Source of the DNA: an uncultured Candidatus Altimarinota bacterium
Lineage (GTDB): Bacteria > Patescibacteriota > Gracilibacteria > BD1-5 > UBA6164
Direction: 5' to 3'
NCBI GenBank assembly: GCA_938015455.1
Contig: CALLPL010000036.1
Location: forward strand, 9,916 to 73,915
DNA: 64,000 nt
Shown here piece after piece: positions 14,268-52,792 of the stretch. The notes beneath the pieces were generated by a model. That model saw nothing but the letters and a program-made list of their open reading frames with translations, was not told the origin of the DNA and did not search any database. A program made the translations under genes and the position numbers. The stretch's first letter is position 1. Each line of letters begins with the position of its first letter.

Positions 14268-14351
14268 TGGTGCCCAGAGAGGGGATCGAACCCTCACACC
14301 CGAAGATAAGGGATTTTGAATCCCTCGTGTCTACCATTCCACCACCTGGGC
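14268..14351 (-). tRNA. tRNA-Leu (anticodon CAA), type II with long variable arm, CCA encoded
   Basis: GCCCAGG acceptor stem. Anticodon arm AGGGA-UUCAAAA-UCCCU. Variable arm UAUCUUCGGGUGU. T arm GAGGG-UUCGAUC-CCCUC. 3' end ACCA. Confidence 0.92.
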
Positions 14352-20938: not shown

Positions 20939-21451
20939 ATGTGAATTTGGATATACATTCTCCCATTGATATTATTATTCCTTGCTCTTGCTTGGGGCTT
21001 TTTTCGTATTTTTCATTCAAAGCTAACTCGCTTAGAGTGAAAAATAATAGATATGTTTAGAGCCCGCACAGATGTTTTTCCTTCACTTTATGAAGTAACT
21101 CAGGACAAGGTTGCAAGACATAATGAAATATTTTCAGAAATAATGCAACTACGAAAAAAGGAGTTCTCTCTCTCAAACCTCAGCAATGAGATAGAATCAT
21201 TTCTTGAACTCGAATGAAGAATTCACCATGAAATAAATTTTATATTTCAAGTGTGCAACAAAAACCCCAAACTTATAAAAGATGGGAATTTTCTCTATAT
21301 TCGGGATGTGATAATGGATAAAAGCAGCTCAATATCAAAACAAATCAAAAAATATCGTAAAGCTACGGGCATTTACAATCAGTCAGTCAAATATAAAAAC
21401 TATACGCTTATCTGACTTCTGCTCCCTTATTCTAAAAAAACAAGTATTTAA
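20939..21451 (+). CDS. LemA-like membrane protein
   Basis: N-terminal TM segment. RARTDVFPSLYEVTQDKVARHNEIFSEIMQLR resembles the LemA core. 170 aa. Confidence 0.5.
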
Positions 21452-22509
21452 GCCTCTTTCTTACTGCGGATAATAAGAAGTAGTGCTCATATAAATAGAG
21501 CAATAAATCAAAATAGAAGCCACATCTCAGGACCTGCTTGAGGAAGCTTGTTTGTAGAATTCGCTGCTTTTGTTACTTTATTAGCATCGATGTCTTCTTG
21601 AGAGAGAGAAGATCAACCATTCCCTGCCGATTGAGTTTTTCACGTAGACTGTAGAGGAGTTATAACTATCTCTTTAGTATCGTCTTTATTTTGAGGAGTG
21701 CCATCTTCTGGGATATCATCTTCATTTTCTGTTGCTGTAAGCTGTACTGGTTCTTCCTCATCCTCTTCTTCATCTTCTTCAGTAATAACTACATCCTCAG
21801 GAGCTGAATTAAGACTTGTTTCACCAAAGTTTGATCATGTAGTATAACTTACGAAAGCATCTATCCCTGATTCAATTGTATTCCCTTTAGCGTCACGAAT
21901 CTCAAGTACTGTTACTTTGTATTCTGTATTCTCGACCATATCAACTCAAAGTAATACTAAAACATTTTTATTATCTGAGTCGCTCACCTGAGAAATATCT
22001 ACTGGAATTTCTGTTCCCATTTGCTTGTCTTCTACAATAAATACACGACTCGCATCTGGACTCATTTCTAAATCAGTGCTAAATTTAAGTTCAATAGTAC
22101 TCTCATCAACTACTTCAACATCAACAATACGAAAATTTGATGTATCTACTGTTCATCAACCAATAGATTGTGTTTTATGGCTGATTTCTTGAGAATACTC
22201 AGATTCTTTTCAGAATTCATCTAAAGCAGTTACAGCTATAAAATAAGTTGTATCAGCTCAAAGTCATTGGAGTAAAAATTCACTCTCATCTATAAGATCA
22301 ATCCCTTCTACTTCATAACTTGATCATGAACCTGTTTTAGTACCATAATAAATATAATATCCCTCTATATTCTCTACATCTCACCAATCAAGACTTATAC
22401 TTGATTGAGAACTTTCTACTACCTCTAGCGCTTCAGGGGCCTGAGTTGCAAAGCTAACTGGAACAGATAAAAATAGAAATAGAAAAGTCAGTATAGAGAG
22501 ATATTTCAT
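21448..22509 (-). CDS. Surface protein with FN3 domain and C-terminal LPxxG sorting signal
   Basis: Signal peptide MKYLSILTFLFLFLSVPVSFA. FN3 motif SISLDWGDVENIEGYYIYYG..YFIAVTALD. Acidic linker. C-terminus KLPQAGPE + MWLLFGFIALFIGALLLII + RSKKEA. Confidence 0.75.
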
Positions 22510-34470: not shown

Positions 34471-35343
34471 TTATATAAATAGTAATATAGAAATAATTGA
34501 TAATATTATAACTATTGCTTTCTTCATATTAAAATGTTCTCAGTAAAATACAATAGAGAGAATTATAGGAATAAGAATATAAAAAGAATTAATAGTAAAC
34601 ACTATAGCAAAGTTTCATTCTAATGCTTTTGCGAAGAAAAAATATGATGCTATATGAGTGATTCATAAAACGGTTACAAACAATGTTAAGCCTTTACTAT
34701 TATACGTTTTTCCCTGAATATTTTTCTCATAGAGGTAGGATACCCATGAGAGTAACATCCCTATGGTAAAAGTCATAAAGATAAACAAATCTAGAGAATA
34801 CTCATAAAATGCTACTATCTTTGCACTTGCAACTCCTATCGTCGAAAACAAAACAGTTATTAATAAAAAGATCAGCCCCTGGGACAAATTCTTTTGTATC
34901 TTATTTTCTGTCTTCGTTAAGAGCATGAGAGGAATGCATATACCAATAACTATTCAGAGAGCCTCTTTAAAGGAAAGATATTCTTTAAATACAAATATAC
35001 TGATCATAGTAACCAGTATCGGTCAAAATGTTTTGTATAAGGGAAAGAAGATAACTGTATCAATATTCCTGAGACTCTTTATTCTTGTAAGAACTGATAA
35101 GTTATAAAACAAAGCATTTAAGAAGGCAAAAATACCTACGAATATCAATTCTTCTTTTGGAAATATGATTCAAGTACTTGTAAGATAATATACATATCCT
35201 CACATAAGAATAACTCCTAAGAGGTAGCCTAAAGCGTTCACAAGATTTGGGCTATAATTTCTTTCGATAACGACTTTAAACATAAAGCTATGTACCCCTG
35301 CAGCTAATGCTGAGAGTAAAGCGTAAATAATCCAGGTTTGCAT
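34471..35343 (-). CDS. EamA/DMT-family transporter, paralog 1 of 4
   Basis: 290 aa, about 10 TM segments. MQTWIIYALLSALAAG.., RNIDTVIFFPLYKTFGPI, C-terminus FYGEHFNMKKAIVIILSIISILLFI. Confidence 0.7.
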
Positions 35344-35348
35344 GATTT

Positions 35349-36212
35349 TTAAATAAATAAGAGTATAGAAATAATTGAAAGGAGTATCACTACTCACTTT
35401 TTAAAATTGAAATGTTCTCCATAAAATATTATGGAAAGCATTATTGGGATAAGCAAAGAGAAAGAGTTTATGGTTGTTGCAATAGCAAAGTTTCATTCTA
35501 AGGCTCTAAAGAATGAAAAAGAAGCTCATATAAAAAAGAATCATGAAATAACTGAAAATGTAAATATTCATTCTTCATTATAGAAAACCTTTTTTTTCTG
35601 ACTTTTATAGTATCAATAGGCAGAAAACACTACCCCAAAAAAGAAAGAACAGCTTAAAAACAAATTTATATCAAGGCCAATAGTTACTCAATATTTTTGA
35701 ACTGTTCCTGCTAAAGCAGTCAACACAGAGGTGGCAAGCATAAATATACATCATCTATAGAGATTTCTTTGAATACGATTTTCCGTTTTCGTAATTAAGA
35801 GTAGAGGTATAGATATTCAACATAAAATACCGAGTCACTCCTTAAAGCTCAGGGATTCATTAAAGAATCATAGACTTATGCAGGTTACAATTATTGGTCA
35901 AAAAGCTTTGTAAAGAGGATAAAATATCATTCCATCTATATTTTTCATACTCTCTACACGCGCATGTATGGACATATTATAAAATCCCACAAGAAAGAAT
36001 CCAAGGAGAACTGCTAAGAGAGTTTCTCTTATATCTGATTGAAATCATCCTAAAAACAAAAATACCGAAAATGATATTATGAATCCTATCAAATACATAT
36101 ATAAATTTGCCAGATTTGTATCATAGTTTTTTTCAGCGATCACCTTGAAAGCAAAACTATAAAATCAGGCAAAAAATGCTGAGAGTAATGAGTAAAATAT
36201 CCAAGATTCCAT
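35349..36212 (-). CDS. EamA/DMT-family transporter, paralog 2 of 4
   Basis: 287 aa. MESWIFYSLLSAFFAG.., KNIDGMIFYPLYKAFGPI, FYGEHFNFKKGVVILLSIISILLFI. 5-nt spacer to paralog 1. Confidence 0.7.
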
Positions 36213-36217
36213 AAAAT

Positions 36218-37084
36218 TTAGATAAACAGTAATATAGAAACTATTGAAAGGGCTATAACAATCCCCTTCTTAAGATTGAAGTGTTCTCAATAAAATATTA
36301 TAGAAAGAATAATTGGGATAAGAATAGAAAAAGAATTAATTGTATATGCTACTGCCAAGTTTCCTTGCATAGACATATTATAGGTATAAAAAGCAAAAAA
36401 ATGAATTATTCATGAAACAACAATAAATTTACTAATTCCTTCAGTTTTGTATTTCATCCTCTCTTTTCGATGATGAATCTTGTATCAAAAATATGAAAAT
36501 ATGATTCAAACAAGTGCAGAATACACAATAAATAAATCCATATTCACTAAAAGTACATTTGCAAGTTTTGGAAAAACTGATGCTATAGAAGCCCAAACAG
36601 CAGTGACACAGAGAAAAAAGATTCAGCGAAACAGATTCTTCTGAATTCGTTTTTCGTTTTGATTTATTAGAAGAAGAGGGATAGATATTCCTACAAGGAT
36701 TCAGATTATTTCTAATAATTCTAATGACTCCCTAAAGTATAAAACGCTAATTATAGTAACAATTATTGGCCCAATCGTTTTATATATTGGATAAAAGATA
36801 ACAGTATCTATATTACGAAGAGCATCAACTCGTGATACAACAGATAAATAGTAGAATCAAATATTCCCAAAGGCAATACTAAAAATAAGTCCGTTTTTTC
36901 CTAAGTCCCACTCATAATTTCATACGCATATATACCAAATAAGTGATATGCAAAAAGTAACGGTATAGGAGTAAGTCGTAACAACATACATATCATACTC
37001 TCTCTGAGCAATAACCTTATAAAGGAAATTAAATACTCCCCCAACAATTGCTCACAGGATAGCCCATATTATCCAGCTTTCCAT
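36218..37084 (-). CDS. EamA/DMT-family transporter, paralog 3 of 4
   Basis: 288 aa. MESWIIWAILGAIVGG.., RNIDTVIFYPIYKTIGPI, FYGEHFNLKKGIVIALSIVSILLFI. 5-nt spacer. Confidence 0.7.
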
Positions 37085-37088
37085 AGAT

Positions 37089-37964
37089 TTAAATAAAGAG
37101 TAATATCGAAACTATTGAGAGAGCAATGACTATTCCTTTTTTGAAGTTAAAGTGTTCTCCATAAAACAGTATAGAGAGTATTATTGGAATAAGGATAGAA
37201 AAAGACTGCAGAGTAAATACGATTGCGAGATTTCATGCCATAGCGTGTATAAAAAAGTACATCCCCCCAAAATGTAAAAGTCATAGGATACACCAAAAGT
37301 ATAAGGGAGCTTTTTGCTTCTCTTCTGAGTTTGTGTTATCCTGCTGCTTTTGGAAAAATAGTATCGCTTGAGACAAAATAGTTCCAATTAGAAAACCGTA
37401 CAGTAAAAATGTATCTATATCTAAATTATAAACATGTGCTATCTTTGGCATAGAAGATGCAATCACTGAAACCCCTGCCGTTATAGCTATGAATATAAGT
37501 CATTTAGATAGGTTCTTTTGTATTTTATTTTCTGTTCGTGTTATAAGTAAAAGAGGGACAAAGACTCATACTCATATACCAAGAGCTTCTCGAGGATTTA
37601 GTGATTCTTGAAATAAAAATAAACTTATGAGAGTTATAATAATAGGAGATATTGTTTTATATATAGGATAAAAGATAACAGTATCTATGCTCCTTAAACT
37701 TATTCACCTTGTTATAATTGAGAGAGATAAAAAAGATATATTTATAGTCGTCAGAATTATAAGAAAGGTCGAAGCATTAGATATTACCTCATATAATTTT
37801 CACTGAAATAGTAAAATTCATGAAAATAGTAGGAAACTTATGGCATTTGCATAAAGGTAAAAAAGATTTATGTCGTACTTTTTCTCTACAATTATCTTTA
37901 CCCCAAAATTCGCAAGCCCTACGAGAATTGCAGATAATAGTGCATAAAGTATCCAAAATTCCAT
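37089..37964 (-). CDS. EamA/DMT-family transporter, paralog 4 of 4
   Basis: 291 aa. MEFWILYALLSAILVG.., RSIDTVIFYPIYKTISPI, FYGEHFNFKKGIVIALSIVSILLFI. 4-nt spacer. Confidence 0.7.
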
Positions 37965-37968
37965 AGGG

Positions 37969-38859
37969 TTACTGATTTTTTGTTATATGGTGCATTGCAA
38001 CAATATCCTCTACTGAGCAGCCTCTAGAGAGATCATTTGCTGGCTTTGCGAGTCACTGGAGCGTTGGACCAAGAGCGACGGCTCACCCGAGTCTCTCTGT
38101 GATTTTATAAGCGATATTTCCTGAATCAATATCTGGGAATATGAAAACATTAGCTGGTTCTTTGAGGGTTGTTTTAGGATTCTTACGAAGACCAATTTCT
38201 GGTATGAGTGCCGCATCAAACTGTATTTCTCACTCGATAGGAATGTCTCAAAGTCCTTCGTCTTGTAGTTTATTCCTGAGTAAGTCGGTTGCTTCTCTAA
38301 CTTTGAGGACCTTTTCATGCTCACCTCAGCTTCACGCAGTTGAAAATGAGAGCATAGCAACTCGAGGTTCTATACCATATTTTAGAGCGCTTTGCACTGT
38401 GAGAAGTCATATCTCAGCGAGCTGTTCTACTGTTGGATCTATTTGTATTCCTCAGTCGCTATAGAGGAATAACTCCTCCTCTCGACCGAAGAGAAAGTGT
38501 GATGAAAGTCTTTTTACTCCCTGCGCTGAACCTACGTTCTTTATAAGGGCTTTAACGATACCAGAGGTTGTTGTAATATTTCCTCATAGAAATCAATCTA
38601 CTTCCCCATCTGCGAGTTTTTTTGCTGCAAAAACCTCATTTTCTATTTCGTCAGGAACTTTAAAATATTCAAGCCCCTCATCAATAAGCTTCTTATATCT
38701 TTCAAGTTCATCTGATTTTCAGCAAATTACAGGATTTTCTCAAGCATCTTTGAGTTTTGAAACAGCTTGAAAAATTCGTTCATCATCAATATCAGGATAA
38801 ATTATTTTATATTCTTTATTTTTTTCAGAGAGATTCTTGAGAAGTTGCGTGAGATTCAT
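37969..38859 (-). CDS. pta: Phosphate acetyltransferase (short form)
   Basis: DGFLGGNITTT, YSDGGIQIDP, PRVAMLSFSTAGSG, FIFPDIDSGNIAYK, ANDLSRGCSVEDIV. 296 aa. Confidence 0.82.
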
Positions 38860-40596: not shown

Positions 40597-41910
40597 ATGC
40601 CAAAGGACGAGTCACAGCAAAACTTGAGTGAAGAAGAGCTAAAAGAGGCTGTCATCGCTGAAGAACAAGAGCGAGAATATCAATCTGATAGCTTTAAAAA
40701 AATTGAATCGCAGGTAAAAGACTGACTTGCAAAGCAAGCAACCGATGATGTACTTAGGGATATCTCTGTTGGAGCAATGTTTATATGAAGCTCTGATGTT
40801 CATTACGAGTGTTTTGAAGAGTATGTCGTTGTGAGGTTTCGAATCGATGGAGTTCTCGTTGATATTTTTAGACTTACACATGCTCAGTATAAAAAGATAG
40901 TAGAGAGACTCAAATACTCATCAAACCTCAAGCTTAATATTTCAAATATTCCTCAAGATGGGAAATATTCTCTCAAGATAGAGGAAAACAAAAAAATAGA
41001 TGTCAGAGTTTCTACTCTTCCTATAAAATATTGAGAAAATATTGTGTGTCGTATACTTGATTCCAGTAAAGCAGCAATAGATTTCGAAGACCTATGATTT
41101 TTCTGGACTTCTAAAAGAATGCTCAATAAAGCTGTAAATAAAAAAAGCTGACTCATACTCGTAACTGGGCCAACTGGTTCTGGTAAGACTACCACGCTCT
41201 ACACGATGCTCAACAGACTCAATACGCGAGATAAAAAGATAATCACCCTCGAAGATCCAATAGAATATGAACTCGAATGAATAGTCCAAGGAGAGATAGA
41301 TGAAAAAAATGGATTCACATTTCACACAGGACTCAAAGCCTGCCTCAGGCAAGATCCTGATGTCATCATGGTCTGAGAGATACGTGACCTTGATACACTC
41401 CAAACTGCTACGGCAGCCTCTCTTACAGGTCACCTCGTACTCTCGACGCTCCATACAAAGTCAGCTGCAGATACTCTTGATCGTATTATCAATATGGGTC
41501 TCGCTCCCTACATTCTTGCCTCGGCTCTGGATACCATCATAGCTCAGAGACTTGTTCGCCGGATATGCCCAGATTGTAAAAAAATCAAAGAAAAAACTCC
41601 TCAGGACGTTGCAATCATAGAATCTATGATGAAGGAAACAGGTATGTCCGTCCTCCCAACGGAGCACATGAAACTCTATGAAGGATCAGGATGTCCGGAG
41701 TGTAACAACTCGGGCTTCAAATGACGAATTGGTATCTATGAAATCATCACTCTCACAGAAAAGATTCGTGATATCATTCGAAAGTGAGGATCAGTAGAGC
41801 AAGTTATCCACGAAGCTCGAAATGGTGATCTCATCATGATGAAGGAGGACGGTATCCTCAAAGCTCTTAAGGGATATACGACTATTGGGGAAATACTGAG
41901 AGTGGTATAA
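40597..41910 (+). CDS. Type IV pilus / type II secretion ATPase (PilB/GspE family)
   Basis: Walker [20 protein letters not shown], Walker [26 protein letters not shown], zinc motif CPDC...CPEC, GRIGIYE. 437 aa. Confidence 0.9.
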
Positions 41911-43579: not shown

Positions 43580-44323
43580 ATGATTCAAAAACTTATAGGT
43601 GAAGTAATACATGGAAATAAACTTGGAAGAACTATAGGGTTCCCAACAGCTAATTTGTCTTATTCAGAGATAGATATTTCTGATAGTGTTTTTATTATCA
43701 ATATTATCATTGACCATAAAATACATCGAGGAATTTGAGCAAATATGGTCAAGAAATGAATTTTTGAGGCTCATATCTTTAATTTTTCTGATGATATTTA
43801 TGGAAAAGAAATAGAAATAATTCTTCTTAAAAAGATTCGAGACAATAAAAATTTCAACTCTCTAGAAGAAATAAAATATCAAATTCAAAAAGATCGGGAC
43901 TTTGCAACAGGCTTAGAACTCAACGTACTTACATTTTGAAGCTTTGATGTTATACATGAATGACATAAGTACTATCTCGCAGAAGCTAAAAAATGTGGGA
44001 CAAATCTAATAACTATAATTGCTACAGATAGCAATATTAAAAAGATTAAATGACATTCCCCTCAAAATTCTCAGATTCAGAGATTCAAAGAAATCTCAGA
44101 ACTCTGAATCTCTGATGAAGTATATATGGGCAGTGAGGATCATCCTATGAGCTGGGTTCATAAATTCGTTCCACATGTTATTTGTCTCTGATATGACCAA
44201 TGGTGAAATTTTGTTGAAGATCTCCCAGAAAAAATTTCAGAACTCTGACTTGAAACTGAAATAAAGAGAATTCCCTCCTTTCATCCAGAAAAATTTAAGA
44301 GTTCTCTCTTAAAACAAAAATAA
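43580..44323 (+). CDS. Bifunctional riboflavin kinase / FMN adenylyltransferase with reversed domain order (RFK N-terminal, cytidylyltransferase-like FMNAT C-terminal)
   Basis: N-terminal GEVIHGNKLGRTIGFPTAN...EAHIFNF..DIYGKEIEI (RFK). C-terminal LTFGSFDVIHEGHKYYLAEAKKCGTNLITIIATD (HxGH nucleotidyltransferase). 247 aa. Confidence 0.7.
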
Positions 44324-44361
44324 AGCCCCTACTTGGTTCACAGAGAGATAACTTCTTATCA

Positions 44362-44399
44362 AAAGGCCATAGTTATTTTTAAGAATAACCATGGCCTTT
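44362..44399. terminator. Bidirectional terminator hairpin between convergent genes
   Basis: aaaggccatagttatt-tttaag-aataaccatggccttt, a 16-bp stem with one mismatch, flanked by A/T runs. Confidence 0.7.
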
Positions 44400-44416
44400 A
44401 AAAAATACTTTTTGAA

Positions 44417-47400
44417 TTATTTTTTCATTATTTCTTGAGCTATCCTATATTGAAGAAGCTGTAATATTGAAGTAAGCTCTTCATTATCTTGATGCTCTGT
44501 AAGTTTTTCATCAATTCTTGCATAAATTGTATACAGGGAGTCTAATCGCTCAGTATCATCTGGTATAGCACGAAGTTTCGTTATGAAGCTCTGTACCTGA
44601 CGCTTATATTGTGTATCTATATCAAGAATATTTTTCTGATCTGGTTCTACAGGACTTTGTGCGTTTTCTATGTACTTCGCTTTTATGATCCATCGTCCTT
44701 CTACTCATCCAATAGGAGTACAGGTAAAGAGTGTAAGATTCTTCCCTTCTCATGGGGTAAGAACTGATGTATCACTTGCTGGAGTATTGTACGAAGCCTC
44801 TGTTACATACTTGTACTGTGAGTATCATCCTGATGCATTCTTTTCATAGACCCAGACTTCTTCCCCAACATCTAGTTCTATAATCTTTTGGAAGTGTGTC
44901 TTATATCTTCACTCTGAGTCTTTCCAATACGAGCTATGAGCGAAAACTACCTTATTCCCTACTTCACCATATCCTCTCGTACTGGTTCCTGGGTACTCAA
45001 GAGCACCGGTTCTGAGAGCTGGATTAATATTTCCTTCTCGGCCATTAATCATCGTATCAAAATCTTTTGAGTCTGATCCAAATTCATTAATTGGAACCAC
45101 AAGACCATTTGATGGAACTACGATATATTTCTGCGCGTTTCTGTCTTCTTCTACCAGTACTTGTTTCCAATGATTTACATCATTGTTCGTAGATCCTGCA
45201 AGACGGAAAGTATCTGCTGATGGAAGCTCTGTAGCTACTCGTGAGTTTGGCTTCGTTTCTATTCTATCTGAAATTGGAGTCCCGGTTCTTGGAAGTTCTT
45301 TTGGAAGAGCTTTGAGAAGCGATTCTCATTTAATTGTTTCTTCTTGAATTTGTTCCTCAATAAGTGCTTCAAGTATATCTTCATACTCTGCTACTTTCTT
45401 TGTAATCTCAGTATCATATTTTTCTTTGAGTTCTTGAACGTTTACTGAGTTAGTAGAATTTATAGGAGCCGAAGGAGCAGAGTTAAGCAGCGGTGTTGAT
45501 GTTCATAAAGGAGTAATGATCGGAGCAGGAAGAGTTGAAGACTCTAGAGGAGTAATAGTAGGATTACTTCTCGAAGAATGACCTCCTCAACTACCTCAAC
45601 TTGAAGATCATGATATAGTTGGGGCAGCAACATACTCCACTACAGTATAATCATTGCTTGCATCACTATCTGTTGTATTATCTCCATTTGGAGTTTCTAT
45701 TTCTCCCGGGTTAGATATAGGAGAACCTGATCTATCCGTAGCTGTATCTGAAACATCACTTGTAGGTCATGCTACACTTTGAGCGATGACTGTAGCAGTA
45801 TTTTCTACAAATCATGCTATGACATCTGGTTGAAAAAGTGAATAGCTTCCTGTGAAGGTAAGCGTGTCTGTTGCTCCAACTGCAAGCGTTGCAATAGGTC
45901 AACCATTTACTGTTATAAGAGGATCTGTTACTACAATATTTGTAAGATCTATATTTCAAGTATTTACTACCTTAAACGTATAGCTTATTGTTTCTCAAAA
46001 TTCTGCCTTTCAGTCATTATTTTCATCATTAAATACTCAGGATTTATAGAGTTCAATTTGAGGAATCTTTTCTATCAGGTAGCTTGTTGGGTCCTCTGTT
46101 GTATCTCCTGTATTATTTGCATAAACAGCAAGTGGGTTATCAGTTTCTGTAGTATCTGGATTACTCACAGAGCTCGTATCCGGAGCAGTCCCTGTATCTG
46201 AAATATCCTCTACTACTGTTCCATTTGGATCTGTACCACTCACGCTTGCGGTATTTTCTATTCCTCAAAAATTAACATCATCTTGAGTCAATACATATGT
46301 TGCTGAATAGTTTACCGAGTTTGTGTGATCAGGACCTATAACAAGGACTGGAGAACCCACTAATACCATACCTGGAAGTGAAGTATCTGTAAGTGTAACG
46401 TCACTGAGAGTAACATTCCCTGTATTAGTAATCTCGAAATTATAACTTACTGTATCTCCTGCTCAAATGATCCCATCCTCTGTTGTGTCTACTACACTCG
46501 AAATAGATTTGATAAGTCGTATATCTGGATTAGGTGAAATAAGGTAACTTGTCGGATCTTCTGTAGGATCACTTCCATTATTTGGATGTGTATCCAAGGG
46601 ATTGTCTGTCTGAGTTCCATCCGGATTAACTATAGTAGTTCCATCTGGAGTAGTTCCTGTATCTGATGTATCTCCTACTATCATATCATTCGGGTCAGTT
46701 CCTGTCACAATTGCAGTGTTTTCTATTCATCCAGCATCTACATCTGCCTGAGTCAATATATAACTCGCTGTATAATTTGTTGTATTTACGTTATTTGGAG
46801 CCATAGTCGGAACTGGACCACCTACCAGAACAAGTCCTGGGAGTGAAGTATCCATAACCGTAACATCACTGAGTGTAACATTCCCAGTATTTGTAATCTC
46901 AAAATGGTAATTCACTGTATCTCCTACTCAGATAACTCCATCTTCTGTTGTGTCTACTACACTCGAGATAGATTTGATAAGCTCTATATCTGGAATAGGT
47001 CATACAGGTTTTGTAACTTCATCTACTGCATCATCTAATATTCCTCATAATGGTGTCCCAGTTGCTGTAGCAATATTAACAACCTCTCCATCATCTGCTT
47101 CAACTTGAGTTACGGGGATACTTGTACAGCTATATTCCCACTGTTCCAAAGGAGAAAGAATATTATCTGAATTAGCATCCGTGTTTGTATCAAGCGTAGG
47201 TCATGAGGTACATTTTTCATCACTCAAGTTAACGAAAGATATAGGCAGATCTCCTGTATTCGTAAGAATAAAAGTATAATCTAGAGTATCCCCTGCCTTC
47301 ATTGGTGTTGATGTTGTTGCCTTTTCAAGAGTCCAACTGGGTACTCATGTAAAGTATCAGAAGTCTTGATCATTATTATCTACTAAGTCTATAACTACAC

Positions 47401-50400
47401 CATCATCATTTTCTATTTCTATAAGGGTATGGGTTGATGTATGTGGTGTTCCAAGTCCATCTGCATCATAGCTTTGAAATGTGTCTACTGGAAGAGTGCT
47501 AGGATCAACTTGTACTTGATATAATCCTACGGGGAGATTATCAAAGAGATATTCTCCATTTGCATCAGTTTGAACCGTATATGGAACTGCCCCTGTGTCA
47601 GACGCAGAAACTACCATCCCCGTAAGAGGATCCACATATATCGGATCACCTGCTCCATCAAGAAGATTTAATGTCACTCATGAAAATGCTCACTCAGAGC
47701 TATCTTGTATTCAATCAGCATTTTCGTCATTCCATATATAGTTTCCTATACTCCCTAGTGGAGTGTAATTATATCAAAAATCTTGATCTTCATCGTCCTC
47801 TACTCAGATGATATTTCAAACAGCATCTGCTTCAAGATCTAAAGTTGTATCAGAAATATTAGAACTTCCAAGACCATCTGAATCATGGGTCTGTTCAGCT
47901 CATGCAGGAAGAGTACTTGGATCAATAGATATTTGATAGTCTCACTGTGGGAGATTTTCAAAGCTATACTCTCCATTTACATCAGTTGTAGCTGTGTATG
48001 GAACAGCTCCTGGAAAACTCGAGTCCACTATTGCTCCTGTGACAGGATCTACATATATTGGATTACCTGATCCATCCAGAAGATTTACTACTACTCATTC
48101 AATACCTGGTTCTCCTGAATCTTCGATTCCATCTCCATTGAGATCATACCAAATAGTATCTCCAATACTCCCACTTACAACCGTAACACTCACATCATTA
48201 GAAATAACATTTAGAGAAATCTCTTTAATCCTTCCTCAAAATGTATTGGTATATACATCTCATGTTGAAAGGTCTGTAACTTTTCCTTCTGAGTCTATAT
48301 CAGGTGTTCCACCTATATTTCCAAAGGGAGTAAGTTCGAGAGAGACTATCTGTCATCCAGCGTTCGCCGCAATATTTCCTGTGACAAATTTAACAGCTGT
48401 TATATCTTCTGGAACTATAGTTCAACATGTTACGGGAGTCGTAAGACTTGAACATGTTTGCCAGTTAGTTGTTCCCGTTCACTGCGTTCATCCACCTGGA
48501 AGTGTACCTCCATTATCCATATATACCTGGTAACATAAATCTCATGAAGCCGGAGTATATCCATTTGGGAGATTATCAGCACTACAGGGATCTTGAGAGA
48601 TACTTGTAGGATTAACATCTGTTGCATAAAATATCTCTCCATTAGAAGAACTTATATTTGTAAGAGTAAGAGATCCATTAAAAGTAGTTGAAGGATCTCT
48701 CGTAGAGTTTAAACCTGAAGTAATTCCTCCATTACCATCGTCGTGGTATGGGAGAATATCAATAAATTCTCCTTCGCTATAATCCTCTCATCATAAGTTT
48801 TTGTAAACAAGGTCATAAGTAAATGGAGTATTTGTACTCTGAACATTATTAGAAACGGTCTTAAATACATCAAAACCATATTCAGGAAGTATTGTGAGCT
48901 GATATGTCGCACTGGCTGAGTCTGAAAAACCATCTCCATCTTGATCTGCTCAAATATCACCAGTAATCACAGCTGTATTAGTAAAAGACCCGGAAGTACG
49001 AGATGGATCTGCTTGTACACTATATTTTATAAGTGGGAGCTGTTCCCCTGCATCAACACTTCAAAAGTTCCAAATCAAAGGATCATCAAATCATTGATGT
49101 TGAGAACTCGTAATGGTTATATCTGGGCTACTTGCATCATAGTCTGTTCTGTTGAGCCAAGTACTTCCTCCATCTATACTAAACTCTTCACTTCCAGCTA
49201 CATAGTCTGTTCCATTTGGGAGATTATCATTTACAGTTGCTGTATTAATAGTGTTATTCCATAGTCATAAAACTTGAGGAGTGATAATAAAATCTATGAT
49301 ATCCCCTCACCTAATAACCTTTATTCCCTTAGGGGATGTTTCTTTTGCTACTGAGTGATTTGAAGGAACGAGAATATTACGATCTGCAAATGAAGAAGAA
49401 AGACTAAAGTTTACGGCCTCAGGATCATCTACAACAGAAGTATCTAAAGTATTTCTCCAAGTACTAAACTCTGATCCTGGTCCAGTATCAAACCTGTAGG
49501 TCATGTATGACGCAAGGTAGTTATTAGAACCGTATCAGCTTGTTAAACCATCTTGAACCTTAACATTATAGTTTGTGGTGATTCCATAGTGAGTATGTGC
49601 CGGACTTGCAGCTAATGCAGCAGGCTTGTCATAATATGATTCCCATCGAACTTTCGAGATCGCTGATCTAGATCAAGTAACCATATCAGGGTCTTCCCAC
49701 CAATCGACTGTTCCTGTAGTTGGATTTCAATTTTCGTCAACTAGACTTCATGACATATTCATTATTACAACAGAACTATCACCATTAACATCATCATCAC
49801 AAAAGTCTTCTTTGAGTTCAGTGAGGGTCGCATGAGAATCGTTTGAGTATAAATATTTACTAAATGGTGAGGTATCAAAAAATGCCGTAGAAACACCAGG
49901 AAAATAGGCAACTCCATTCGGGTTTGTTGGACCATGATTCCATCAGTATCATAAATCTGCTCGAGGTGCAGGAGATAATCCTATATATTCATATTTCGTT
50001 AGATCAAGTTTTGTACATGTTTGAGATCTAGCACCATCAATGGTTCTGTAATCAAAAACATTATTCATAATGGCTACTGTCTCTCCTGCAGATACATATT
50101 GTTCCTGCTGTAGCTTATGGCTAGTCCCCCAAGGCATTTTAAAGTGACTCATATAAGCAGAATAAGTTCCTGGAGATGAGTAGGTCATTACAAAACTACG
50201 AGTCTGATCCGTAAATGATGGCTCTCAAGATCCGTTATAATTGAGAAGATTATTTTCTCCTACATCTTCTGTTGAAATAGGGTTAAATCATAATATTGAT
50301 CATGAACTATAGGTTCATACTGAGTTTATAACATAGTTCTCACAGCTTGGACAACTTTGATGCCCATCAATATCAGGAGTTCGAGGAAACCATAAATTTA

Positions 50401-51478
50401 TTGCTACTTCTATAAGATTACTATCATTATCAGGATCTCTTACATCAATATTATCTAGATCTATAGTAATATTTGGATCATTTACTCCATCAGGAACAAA
50501 CGAGGGTCCTGTAAAATCCCCTGAAACACTGTCTTGGGTACATGAAACAGTTGCGTTTGCTCCATGATCCCCTATAAGAGAACATCCAGGATCTAGTCCC
50601 CAAGTATATAAGATACCTCCAGTAGAGAGATCTCCTCCACTTCCAGAAGTATTGTTGTTATCATTGTTATCTGTATAGAAGTCCAATAAGTCATAATCAA
50701 CTTCAAAGGTTATTTCATCAGAATCAGCAACCATAGATCCTTTTTCATATGTTGCTTTTATTACATACTCCATAAGTACTCACTGTTCCCCACTTGGTCA
50801 ATCTTTCAAAGGAGGATCATAAACAACATCCACATTTCCATCTCCATCTGTGTCTACATCAGGTACTTTAAGATCTTTTGTAGTATTTACACGAAAATTT
50901 GCTGTTACTATAGTATCTTCACTTGTATCGCTTGCAGCAATCGATCCATCTCACTGAGATGAAACACTCGCGCTCACCCTATCGTCGTTGAGAGTTATCT
51001 CGCTTCCGTCAGCTGATGCTCCAATCGCTCTTGCAGCTGGAAAAAATATCCTATTTGTTCCTTCGATTGCAGGTCATAGATTACAAAAGAGTGTTGTCTT
51101 ATCTATTGAAATAGTTGATATATTCGCAACAATCGCTGGATCTGTCTGACATCATGATGGAATCTCTATCCATGCCTGTTTACTATCAAGCTGAACGGTT
51201 GAAGTCAATTCATTCACATCATTGTCATTTATAGAAACCTCAACCTTATACGTAATAGAATCTTGAAGTCTCGTAACATTATTTTCTTCATCTTCATCAA
51301 ATCCAGCTGTTGCTAGGTCATTTCCATCCCAAGTAACACCAAGGTCAAAAGGTTCTGATCAAGTTTTAAAAACAGAAATCGTAGTATTTACCACAGGAGT
51401 TGCAGCATATATGGCAGAAATAGGAAGAATCCCCCACACAAGAGTTATTAGTAATGTAGAAGATGTTAAACGTTTCAT
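44417..51478 (-). CDS. Giant secreted repeat adhesin (2353 aa) with a C-terminal sortase domain
   Basis: ATG 51478 to TAA 44417, with no TAA/TAG in frame (checked triplet by triplet) and dozens of TGA. Signal peptide [25 protein letters not shown]. SdrD/Cna-B-like units ([22 protein letters not shown]). DUF11-like units ([20 protein letters not shown]). S/G/P linker. Sortase motifs [21 protein letters not shown]. Confidence 0.75.
45990..47010 (-). repeat. Tandem 465-nt (155-aa) coding repeats inside the giant gene
   Basis: tgttgtgtctactacactcga at 46481 recurs at 46946 (offset 465). Protein units ...[21 protein letters not shown]...TGTDPN...EDPTSYLI. Confidence 0.8.
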
Positions 51479-51587
51479 ATATACGAATCAAAAATATAAA
51501 TATCCTTACTAGGATAATATACTTTTAAAAGTATGTAAAAGATAGCAGCTACTATTCGTTTTACATAGCTGATTGTTTAGGTATAAA

Positions 51588-51616
51588 ATAAAGCCTCTGA
51601 AACTCAGAAGCTTTAT
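51588..51616 (-). terminator. Terminator hairpin after CDS 51631..52161
   Basis: ataaagcctctga-aac-tcagaagctttat, followed by a U-rich tail on the minus strand. Confidence 0.5.
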
Positions 51617-51630
51617 TTTAAATAATTTCA

Positions 51631-52161
51631 TTAAGCTCTTCCTCAATTTAGGATCTCTTGATATTCCTCAAGCTCTGACCATTTTCCTTCCATTGCAAGA
51701 CGAGCCTGATCTGGCCAGGTAGTTGGAGAGTGAACCTGATAGCGAGGACCTCCAGCAAGAAGTATATCTTCTAAACCAGTAACGTCCGAGCTCACTACAT
51801 CTGCAAAGGTTCTTACTCCATGTTTATTCATAAGTTTTTCTATCTTTGGACCAACACCTTCTATTCTTTGAAGATCATCTTTTTCTGCTTTTACCTTCTT
51901 TTCTTTTTTTGCTACGACTGGTGTAATCTCTTCTGGTTCAGAAATATCTATTGTTGCAGAAGCTTTTTTAGGTTTCTTACTCGCGCTATAGCTTGTGACT
52001 CAGGCAATTGCTGATGCTGAGACTACTTTTTGAACTACATATTTACTTGGTTTTAAAAGCCATGCGAGAATCATTCCAAGTAAAAATGCTCAAAATAGCA
52101 TCAGGGCAATCTCTATACTTGCGTCCGTGAGATTATAAGTTTGTGTTATATTATCAAACAT
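51631..52161 (-). CDS. Membrane-anchored helix-hairpin-helix domain protein (176 aa)
   Basis: TM segment IEIALMLFGAFLLGMILAWLL, K-rich linker, DDLQRIEGVGPKIEKLMNKHGVRTFADV, TWPDQARLA. The listed stop TGA 51643 is read through; the true TAA is at 51631. Confidence 0.6.
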
Positions 52162-52186: not shown

Positions 52187-52792
52187 TTATTGGCATGCTA
52201 TCTCATTGATCTTTTTCACAGTAGTTCGGAAAACAAATCATGTAGGTTCAGTTACTCCCCATGGATCAAGGATTTCAGCTTTAAATTCTTTTTGGAAATT
52301 CTTCACTGCCTCAAAATCTGCTTGTCCATAATTTCCATCTATAGAGAGATCTTCTCATCGTGAAATAAGGAATTCCTCTAGGAGTTCAACTTGCTGCGTG
52401 TCATTATTTTTTCAAAACTCTATTGGTCACACGAGAGGAGTTTCACAAATAGATAGTGCTCCTCACGAAACTGATCATTCATTTTGTTCATCTACCTCTA
52501 CTGAATCTTCTTCAGCACCATCATCTATTAAAACTCGAGGAAGTTCTGTATTTGGAGTTTCACTCTCTATTACTACTACTTCTTCTTTTTTCTCTAAAAT
52601 AACTTCCTTTGTAACTGGCTGCGTAACATCATTTCCTGTTATGAGCTTTGCTTTTGCTTCTACTAGCCTCTGATCATTCGTTACAGCAATTCCATCACAG
52701 AATCCCTTGATATTACATGTATACCAATACCATGAAGTATAAGCCCAGCCGGCTGTAAGGAGTAAAGTAATCAAGATAAGCAGCATTCTCAT
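52187..52792 (-). CDS. Membrane-anchored protein with a peptidoglycan-binding-like domain (201 aa)
   Basis: TM segment MRMLLILITLLLTAGWAY. C-terminal QQVELLEEFLISRGEDLSIDGNYGQADFEAVKNFQKEF is PG_binding_1-like. Confidence 0.55.

Follow-up and report, generated by a model that had tools for sequence, protein, structure and literature searches.

In a 64-kb stretch of DNA from an uncultured Candidatus Altimarinota bacterium (contig CALLPL010000036.1, positions 9,916 to 73,915; hereafter the window), a single gene at positions 44417–51478 of the reverse strand encodes a predicted secreted, adhesin-like protein, an LPRTG sorting motif and a sortase domain as one polypeptide. Sortases are typically separately encoded, membrane-anchored enzymes that act on many substrates. 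In the protein described here, a sortase domain with an intact active site lies downstream of an LPxTG-type motif on the same chain, and this arrangement is conserved among relatives and modular, recurring behind unrelated passenger regions. We consider it probable that the gene encodes a self-sorting surface protein, equipped with its own self-contained sorting module. The parts, namely the sortase, the LPxTG motif and the stalk repeats, are known, while no account of their arrangement was found in the full-text literature searched.

Sorting motif and sortase domain in a single reading frame

The open reading frame (ORF) runs from an ATG at 51478 to a TAA at 44417–44419, comprising 2,354 codons including the stop and giving a product of 2,353 residues. 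It contains 64 TGA codons, no TAG and a single, terminal TAA, in agreement with the original prediction, made by inspection of the sequence, of an uninterrupted frame between these two codons. The nearest in-frame TAA upstream of the ATG is at 51508, 10 codons before it. Since a random frame at about 36% GC meets TAA or TAG about once per 20 codons, 2,353 open codons cannot be due to chance. Read with the standard bacterial table, the ORF has 64 internal stops, every one of them TGA. For the window as a whole, the longest ORF is 247 amino acids (aa) when TGA is a stop (code 11), and reading TGA as sense yields 67 tightly packed ORFs across 64 kb.

The identity of the TGA-encoded residue was established from alignments. 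In a PilB/GspE-like ATPase ORF (40597–41910), six of nine TGA codons match Gly residues of Vibrio GspE, including one in the VMVGEIRD box; in the NAD synthetase ORF of the window, a TGA falls within the SGGxDS loop; and the TGA codons of the sortase domain sit at family-consensus Gly positions (GRYKTHF, TCTPIGG). Judged from these alignments, TGA is read as glycine (code 25), and the window is a piece of the chromosome of a code-25 bacterium (Gracilibacteria/Absconditabacteria). A tRNA scan of the window did not find tRNA-Gly(UCA), the sole tRNA being tRNA-Leu(CAA) at 14268–14351. The protein encoded by the giant ORF is organized as follows.

44417–51478 (−): complete ORF, 2,353 codons plus TAA in code 25, with 64 in-frame TGA codons read as Gly
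51404–51478 (−): predicted Sec-type signal peptide, aa 1–25, consisting of MKR, a 19-aa hydrophobic core and AIYA-A (cleavage before the last A), from a Kyte–Doolittle scan and inspection of the sequence
48170–51403 (−): N-terminal passenger region, aa 26–1103
47345–48169 (−): two SdrD_B (Cna-B/prealbumin-like) stalk repeats, aa 1104–1378 (PF17210, E = 7e-28)
45617–47344 (−): four DUF7507/DUF11 Ig-like repeats, aa 1379–1954 (DUF7507, PF24346, E = 8e-75; DUF11, PF01345, E = 1e-11)
45437–45616 (−): Ser/Gly/Pro/Thr-rich low-complexity linker, aa 1955–2014, hypervariable in length and sequence between orthologs
45296–45436 (−): charged helical spacer, aa 2015–2061, with the conserved end [11 protein letters not shown]; helix predicted in a homolog model
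45281–45295 (−): LPRTG sorting motif, aa 2062–2066, a conserved alignment column, with the presumed scissile bond T2065-G2066
45131–45280 (−): conserved segment TPISDR...[12 protein letters not shown]...W...DR, aa 2067–2116, predicted from a homolog model to form an N-terminal wrap on the sortase domain
44666–45130 (−): sortase β-barrel core, aa 2117–2271, assigned from Pfam, conservation and homolog models
44936–44938, 44720–44722 and 44693–44695 (−): catalytic residues His2181, Cys2253 and Arg2262
44420–44665 (−): C-terminal three-helix tail of about 80 aa, aa 2272–2353, with the conserved end L-x-Y-x-x-x-[LI]-A-x-E

A Pfam search of the code-25 translation identified, in addition to the stalk repeats, a match to the sortase family (PF04203) at aa 2153–2268, with E = 2.9e-11 and a score of 43.6 bits (gathering score 26.6). 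The catalytic residues are found in the strings AHSS (His2181), TLFTC (Cys2253) and GRW (Arg2262); all 65 family members compared have the His and the Cys, and at least 90% have the Arg. These results bear out most of the anatomy that had been proposed from the letters alone, comprising an N-terminal signal peptide, a body of SdrD/Cna-B-like and DUF11-like repeats, a Ser/Gly/Pro-rich linker and a C-terminal sortase with a His/Cys/Arg pattern. The LPRTG motif had been overlooked in that first reading. With tandem stalk domains and a distinct N-terminal region, the predicted secreted protein resembles fibrillar or stalk adhesins. No match to the N-terminal ~1,100 aa was found in Pfam, NCBIfam or PDB sequences (1,079 aa were compared with PDB). 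This region is common to the ortholog L005 and, in part, to the family members L012, L023 and L033.

The protein has the N-terminal secretion signal and the pentapeptide of an LPXTG surface protein; it lacks the hydrophobic stretch and positively charged tail that immediately follow the motif at the extreme C-terminus of such proteins. A Kyte–Doolittle scan saw no hydrophobic segment anywhere in aa 26–2353, leaving the N-terminal one as the only such segment in the protein. Because there is no transmembrane segment after the motif, classical retention is impossible. LPRTG lies 191 residues before the catalytic Cys, and all 287 residues between the motif and the C-terminus are hydrophilic or folded. 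The sortase domain likewise lacks the membrane anchor or signal peptide that typically stands directly before a sortase, as had been noted at the outset. Nor is there a usable start for a separate exported sortase: to the GTG at 45100 (within VVPINEF of the sortase domain), the one alternative considered in the original prediction, only a GTG at 45640 and an ATG at 45052 (also within the domain) can be added as in-frame starts between aa 1900 and 2200. A promoter and terminator scan of 44000–52000 gave no enrichment over shuffled sequences and no internal site pointing to a separate sortase transcript.

Conservation and modularity of the LPxTG-sortase cassette

The fusion is a real, conserved and modular architecture and not a frameshift artefact. 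The last 302 aa, used as query in a protein search, matched 64 relatives, many of them fragmentary or carrying Trp at TGA positions as a result of gene calling in code 11 or code 4. A scan of one genome per GTDB species gave 80 loci. In the family set, formed by the close relatives and the window protein (36 ORFs), 32 ORFs share the order of passenger, LPxTG and sortase cassette. The fusion of a secreted repeat protein to a catalytically intact sortase, first proposed for the window gene, is thus no isolated case. The motif-bearing loci come from 26 species-level Gracilibacteria/Absconditabacterales genomes, as well as from metagenome contigs; three of these genomes encode two cassette-bearing proteins each. 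At least 21 of the 32 fusions are complete, with an N-terminal signal peptide and a length of 637–2,438 aa, and the others run off contig ends. Complete small fusions, in which a signal peptide and a short passenger precede LPKTG or LPQTG and the sortase, are represented by P0010, P0011 and P0059. L002, re-translated in code 25, encodes a further one of 1,040 aa, in which DUF11-like repeats, LPKTG and a sortase follow the signal peptide.

The ortholog L005, from an independently assembled Absconditabacterales metagenome-assembled genome (MAG), is 48% identical to the window protein over ~2,100 aa and has an uninterrupted frame. While the linkers of the two proteins differ by several in-frame indels, the motif lies in a run of 20 residues that is the same in both ([20 protein letters not shown]). 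Two contigs depart from the continuous frame. In L001 (9767–9882) and L026 (7525–7750), the passenger and LPxTG-sortase ORFs overlap and are one nucleotide out of frame, the offset falling in the low-complexity linker (poly-Gly/Ser or an STP repeat). In both, the motif lies upstream of any ATG, which identifies them as broken copies; L014, whose cassette is nearly identical to that of L026, has a continuous frame. The offset could stem from misassembly of the repeats, or from slipped-strand phase variation by which the anchor module is turned off.

When 31 non-redundant fusions were aligned, the motif had L in 31/31, P in 27/31 (otherwise L), a variable third position, T in 29/31 (otherwise S) and G in 31/31, its L and G being as invariant as catalytic residues; an extra Pro occurs at −3 in 29/31. 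The spacing from motif to catalytic Cys is 185–199 residues in every fusion except L033 (215), and conservation collapses upstream of the motif, in the hypervariable linker. Sub-clades carry LPxMG, LLxTG or LPxSG at this position, a variation that resembles the co-variation of sortase classes and signals elsewhere. The LPxMG and LLxTG forms occur in P0020, P0029, P0040 and P0041 and in L018, L022, L027 and L034; cleavage at these sites would mean that the enzymes tolerate Met at P1 or Leu at P4, which would be unusual specificities for a sortase. A role for TGA at the motif Gly as a signal was considered and rejected: TGA is used in 14/32 cases, near the background share of TGA among Gly codons, and the window gene has GGG.

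Stand-alone, transmembrane-anchored relatives form a minority (L021, L028, L030, L035, P0003-5 and L083), and none has an intact motif; the refuting possibility that orthologs always carry the sortase as a separate gene with its own transmembrane anchor is contradicted by these counts. L021, L028, L030 and L035 are short family ORFs with a hydrophobic N-terminus (transmembrane anchor or signal peptide) from which the motif is absent, and the predicted mature N-terminus of L030, TSISQRV, coincides exactly with the post-motif position. The transmembrane-anchored P0003-5 are the closest to the window cassette (65–67% identical) and have a decayed IPQTRA at the motif site; on L083, the contig of P0005, the sortase was confirmed as a separate gene. 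Genome PDRA01 holds both forms, the stand-alone L021 and the fusion L023.

A profile search of a representative library of 1.84 billion proteins extended these observations. The cassette was matched by 173 proteins at E < 1e-30, and about 30 of the best 150 matches are proteins of 800–3,805 aa with the cassette match at the extreme C-terminus. Of 46 proteins in which 300 aa or more precede the Cys, 40 have the motif, compared with 6 of 27 in which 220–299 aa do.

All-against-all BLAST divided the passengers into at least eight unrelated groups, and a neighbor-joining tree of the sortase cores does not follow this grouping. The cassettes of L003 and L005, for example, are nearly the same although their passengers are unrelated, group-B passengers bear cassettes of three different branches, and the stand-alone forms are scattered among fusion clades. 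The unrelated passengers and the incongruent tree indicate that the cassette behaves as a portable C-terminal module, like a classical sorting signal. Its two elements, motif and domain, appear to be functionally coupled, as suggested by their strict co-occurrence and fixed spacing, by the loss of the motif where no passenger is present, by the lack of a retention segment, and by the maintenance of one cassette per protein on several unrelated proteins of a genome.

Sortase fold and genomic context

Structures were predicted with AlphaFold2 for the homologs P0059 and P0001, with Trp at TGA positions, and not for the window protein itself. In the P0059 model (445 aa), the predicted local distance difference test (pLDDT) score exceeds 90 in the sortase core and is 81–89 in the three-helix tail and ~57 in the motif region. 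P0001, which is 57% identical to the window cassette, was modeled with a mean pLDDT of 87 and a predicted template modeling (pTM) score of 0.76. Its only stretch with pLDDT below 50 is SLPKVLPQT; the score rises to 82–92 within about five residues after the Gly, from which the conserved TPISxR segment is taken to be part of the fold. Both homolog models have the eight-stranded β-barrel of sortases. Foldseek aligned them to solved sortases with probability 1.00, E ~1e-9 and TM(target) of 0.5–0.78, with similar scores for class C, Corynebacterium SrtA, B. anthracis SrtA and classes D, E and A.

None of the NCBIfam class models came near its cut-off (bits/cut-off: class E 25.0/160, SrtD 24.9/140, class C 24.7/160, class D 24.7/165, TIGR01076 22.1/39.35, class GN 18.6/158), and a phmmer comparison of the cassette with PDB gave no sortase match (best E = 0.3, unrelated), so that the family is reachable by profile or fold only. 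Judged by these sequence scores, the domain is a divergent sortase outside the curated classes. With classes A–F and GN it shares the fold (Foldseek E ~1e-9) and the catalytic motifs; unlike the curated classes, it scores ~25 bits where 140–165 are required, and it has a signature of its own ([20 protein letters not shown]) and, in some members, a three-helix tail. The tail has no family match, and its end follows the consensus L-[EN]-Y-[LI]-x-x-[KR]-[LI]-A-x-E among homologs. Some cassette clades carry it, as does the stand-alone L028/P0035; several other clades lack it, and only ~20 aa follow their core.

Classical sortase substrates are encoded in the same genomes. In the window, the product of 21448–22509 (−) is 353 aa long and consists of a signal peptide, fn3 and Big_5 domains, an acidic linker and a complete classical sorting signal, in which LPQAG precedes 22 hydrophobic residues and RSKKEA. 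Its homolog in L020 (13155–14894) ends in LPQTG, a transmembrane segment and RRKKS, and an unrelated protein in L002 ends in LPKTG, a transmembrane segment and KFKTKS. These proteins indicate that LPx[TA]G is a sorting signal in use in these genomes, and that some trans-acting sortase activity must exist in these lineages. Complete peptidoglycan synthesis has been described for a Gracilibacterium, and Vampirococcus has a Gram-positive-type wall and many giant surface proteins (PMC6851277, PMC8080830). Kantor et al. reported an SR1 genome with a sortase but no predicted sorted proteins (PMC3812714), and half of the proteins in a survey of fibrillar adhesins had no known anchor (PMC8286594).

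The neighboring genes in the window are housekeeping genes, namely ribE, ribH, ribF, and NUDIX, MFS and PilB genes. The two genes that precede the giant ORF in the same orientation (52187–52792 and 51631–52161) encode small exported or membrane proteins; for one, a weak match to PG_binding_1 was obtained (E = 5.5e-4, below cut-off), and the other has an N-terminal transmembrane segment and an HHH_5 motif. Four tandem paralogous genes of ~290 aa each occupy 34471–37964 (−); the one that was scanned encodes an EamA-family transporter, and the rest look alike by eye. They are followed by a phosphate acetyl/butyryl-transferase gene at 37969–38859. Public gene calls of such genomes often use code 11 or code 4, which leaves giant genes fragmented or with Trp at TGA and hides the fused architecture in protein databases, where such proteins are named "DUF11 domain-containing protein", "sortase", "hypothetical" or not at all.

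Proposed sorting mechanism and alternative explanations

In the mechanism we propose, the signal peptide would take the unfolded chain through Sec, N-terminus first. The adhesin-like passenger of ~2,000 aa, with its head and its SdrD_B and DUF7507/DUF11 stalk, would emerge and fold outside the cell, and the C-terminal cassette would exit last, the enzyme folding only once the whole passenger is outside. The fused sortase (His2181/Cys2253/Arg2262) would then attack the T2065-G2066 bond, in its own chain or in a neighboring copy, forming a thioester with the passenger that would be resolved by an amine, most likely that of a peptidoglycan precursor or cross-bridge. The passenger would thereby become covalently fixed, and the ~290-aa sortase module, now starting G-TPISDR, would be discarded after this single turnover. 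The cassette would thus stand in for both the hydrophobic and charged retention tail of a substrate and the separate membrane-anchored enzyme. Unrelated passengers, an incongruent tree and two cassette-bearing proteins in each of three genomes are what would be expected if each protein needs its own enzyme.

The original prediction had suggested a possibly cis-acting form of surface display. The LPxTG motif in front of the sortase domain strengthens this suggestion, which stays an inference, since AlphaFold left the motif undocked. We put forward with some reserve, as slightly less probable than not, the more specific proposal that the cassette is a true cis-acting, single-turnover "autosortase", which would be the first natural fusion of a sortase with its substrate and a portable C-terminal self-anchoring module, passed among unrelated giant surface proteins, in code-25 bacteria of the candidate phyla radiation (CPR; Gracilibacteria/Absconditabacteria).

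Compared with classical LPXTG sorting, as in S. aureus SrtA and protein A, the system has the same signal peptide, LPxTG motif, His/Cys/Arg sortase β-barrel and setting in organisms with peptidoglycan. It differs in that enzyme and substrate are one polypeptide, in that the enzyme is unanchored and would be consumed with each substrate, and in that no hydrophobic segment or charged tail follows the motif, whose distance from the C-terminus is 287 aa rather than ~35. A self-cleaving sortase fusion was reportedly engineered by Mao in 2004. Engineered single-chain SrtA-LPXTG fusions such as BISOP also hold sortase and LPXTG in one chain and self-cleave in vitro, but they are synthetic, have the opposite order (SrtA-LPXTG-target) and serve tag removal and not anchoring (PMC2901362). 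Hedgehog/Hint proteins and autotransporters undergoing autoprocessing offer a functional analogy only: an exported C-terminal catalytic module, a (thio)ester at the junction and a single use, with unrelated fold and chemistry and no homology. A natural parallel in organization is L073, a 711-aa ORF in standard code from a Paceibacterota MAG (DASWIZ010000030.1), in which an adhesin-like region, LPETG, a transmembrane segment, KRARK, a second transmembrane segment and a sortase share one frame, with LPETG 192 aa before the Cys. Here a full classical sorting signal is joined head to tail to a classical anchored sortase, and both of the usual membrane segments are retained, unlike in the cassettes. 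The case stands alone, with a sortase of only ~30% identity, and may represent either a separate fusion event or an intermediate stage in evolution. The architecture of the window protein was not found described in the full-text literature, which returned general mentions of CPR sortases and engineered fusions only, subscription-only papers being outside the search.

Several points weigh against self-sorting. The motif is disordered and undocked in both AlphaFold2 models (pLDDT <50 in P0001, ~57 in P0059), and both are models of homologs with Trp at TGA positions. As the folded domain resumes about five residues past the Gly, the reach of the motif to its own active site would depend on geometry; the models appear neither to favor nor to exclude docking there. 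The enzyme is unanchored, so that its meeting with lipid II is hard to account for. The trans-acting sortase activity implied by the classical substrates could also process the fused motif, and the LPxMG and LLxTG variants may or may not be competent sites.

The most serious alternative is that the reaction occurs only in trans. A membrane-anchored housekeeping sortase encoded elsewhere would cut LPRTG, or the fused domain would act as the general sortase of the cell for classical substrates such as the fn3 protein at 21448–22509, the fusion serving merely to co-deliver enzyme and adhesin or to build class C-like polymers by joining the passenger to a Lys of the next subunit. The classical LPxTG proteins with transmembrane segment and tail in the window, L002 and L020 fit this explanation, as do the stand-alone transmembrane-anchored paralogs of the lineage (with both forms in PDRA01), the pilin-like Ig/Cna-B folds of the passenger and the failure of AlphaFold to dock the motif in cis. 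The top Foldseek matches are moreover pilus-polymerizing class C sortases, although the scores do not separate class C from A, D and E. Reaction in trans alone, however, gives no reason for a ~290-aa cassette on several unrelated giant proteins per genome, has no need of a fixed spacing and conserved tether, and would rely on a soluble, unanchored domain that makes a poor general sortase. We regard it as unlikely, while giving it appreciable weight.

The motif might instead be a pseudo-substrate, or lid, that is never cleaved and occupies or regulates the active site, leaving a sortase at the distal end of the adhesin to ligate, for example, a partner or prey molecule. The lid of class C sortases and the N-terminal appendage of B. 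anthracis SrtA sit N-terminal to the folded domain, which is where the motif is found, and both proteins are Foldseek matches; the region is also kept, in the decayed form IPQTRA, in the stand-alone P0003-5. Known sortase lids are nevertheless DP[WFY]-type motifs and not genuine substrate sequences, whereas the motif here matches the signal on which the classical substrates of these genomes end and is lost exactly where there is no passenger to release. An uncleaved protein with its signal peptide removed would, furthermore, have no attachment to the producing cell. This makes the explanation improbable.

Still less credible, at a small fraction of the weight given to sorting, is a release module, in which LPRT-G is hydrolyzed by water and the passenger is shed from a cassette held at the surface by the C-terminal helical tail. 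SrtA hydrolyzes its substrate slowly when a nucleophile is absent, and the three-helix tail is conserved where present; but the tail is missing from several cassette clades (~20 aa), it is not hydrophobic, and a secreted protein needs no cleavage for its release. Finally, a sequencing or assembly error that removed a stop or shifted the frame and so joined two genes, for which the one-nucleotide offset in L001 and L026 might speak, is essentially excluded by at least 21 full-length fusions, independent of one another, in frame and headed by a signal peptide, among 26 species genomes, by the frame kept in L005 across several in-frame indels, by the lack of a start codon, signal peptide or transmembrane segment for a separate sortase here, and by the position of the LPxTG part upstream of any ATG in L001 and L026, which marks those contigs as the broken copies.

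Self-sorting, which we thus continue to prefer, invites two further suggestions. The acyl-enzyme may be resolved on the wall of a host or prey cell, welding the adhesin of an epibiont covalently to its victim. The fusion itself may have arisen when reassignment of TGA from stop to Gly joined adjacent substrate-TGA-sortase genes into one ORF.

If the proposal is correct, the provision of each giant surface protein with its own sortase behind its own LPxTG would constitute a new logic of covalent surface display. It would explain the sortases of SR1 and Gracilibacteria that occur with few or no recognizable sorted proteins, and the cassette would offer biotechnology a compact natural self-ligating tag of ~290 aa. 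For the organisms themselves, it would help to show by what means CPR bacteria that are uncultured and live as epibionts or predators display the huge adhesins that are thought to mediate attachment to their hosts.

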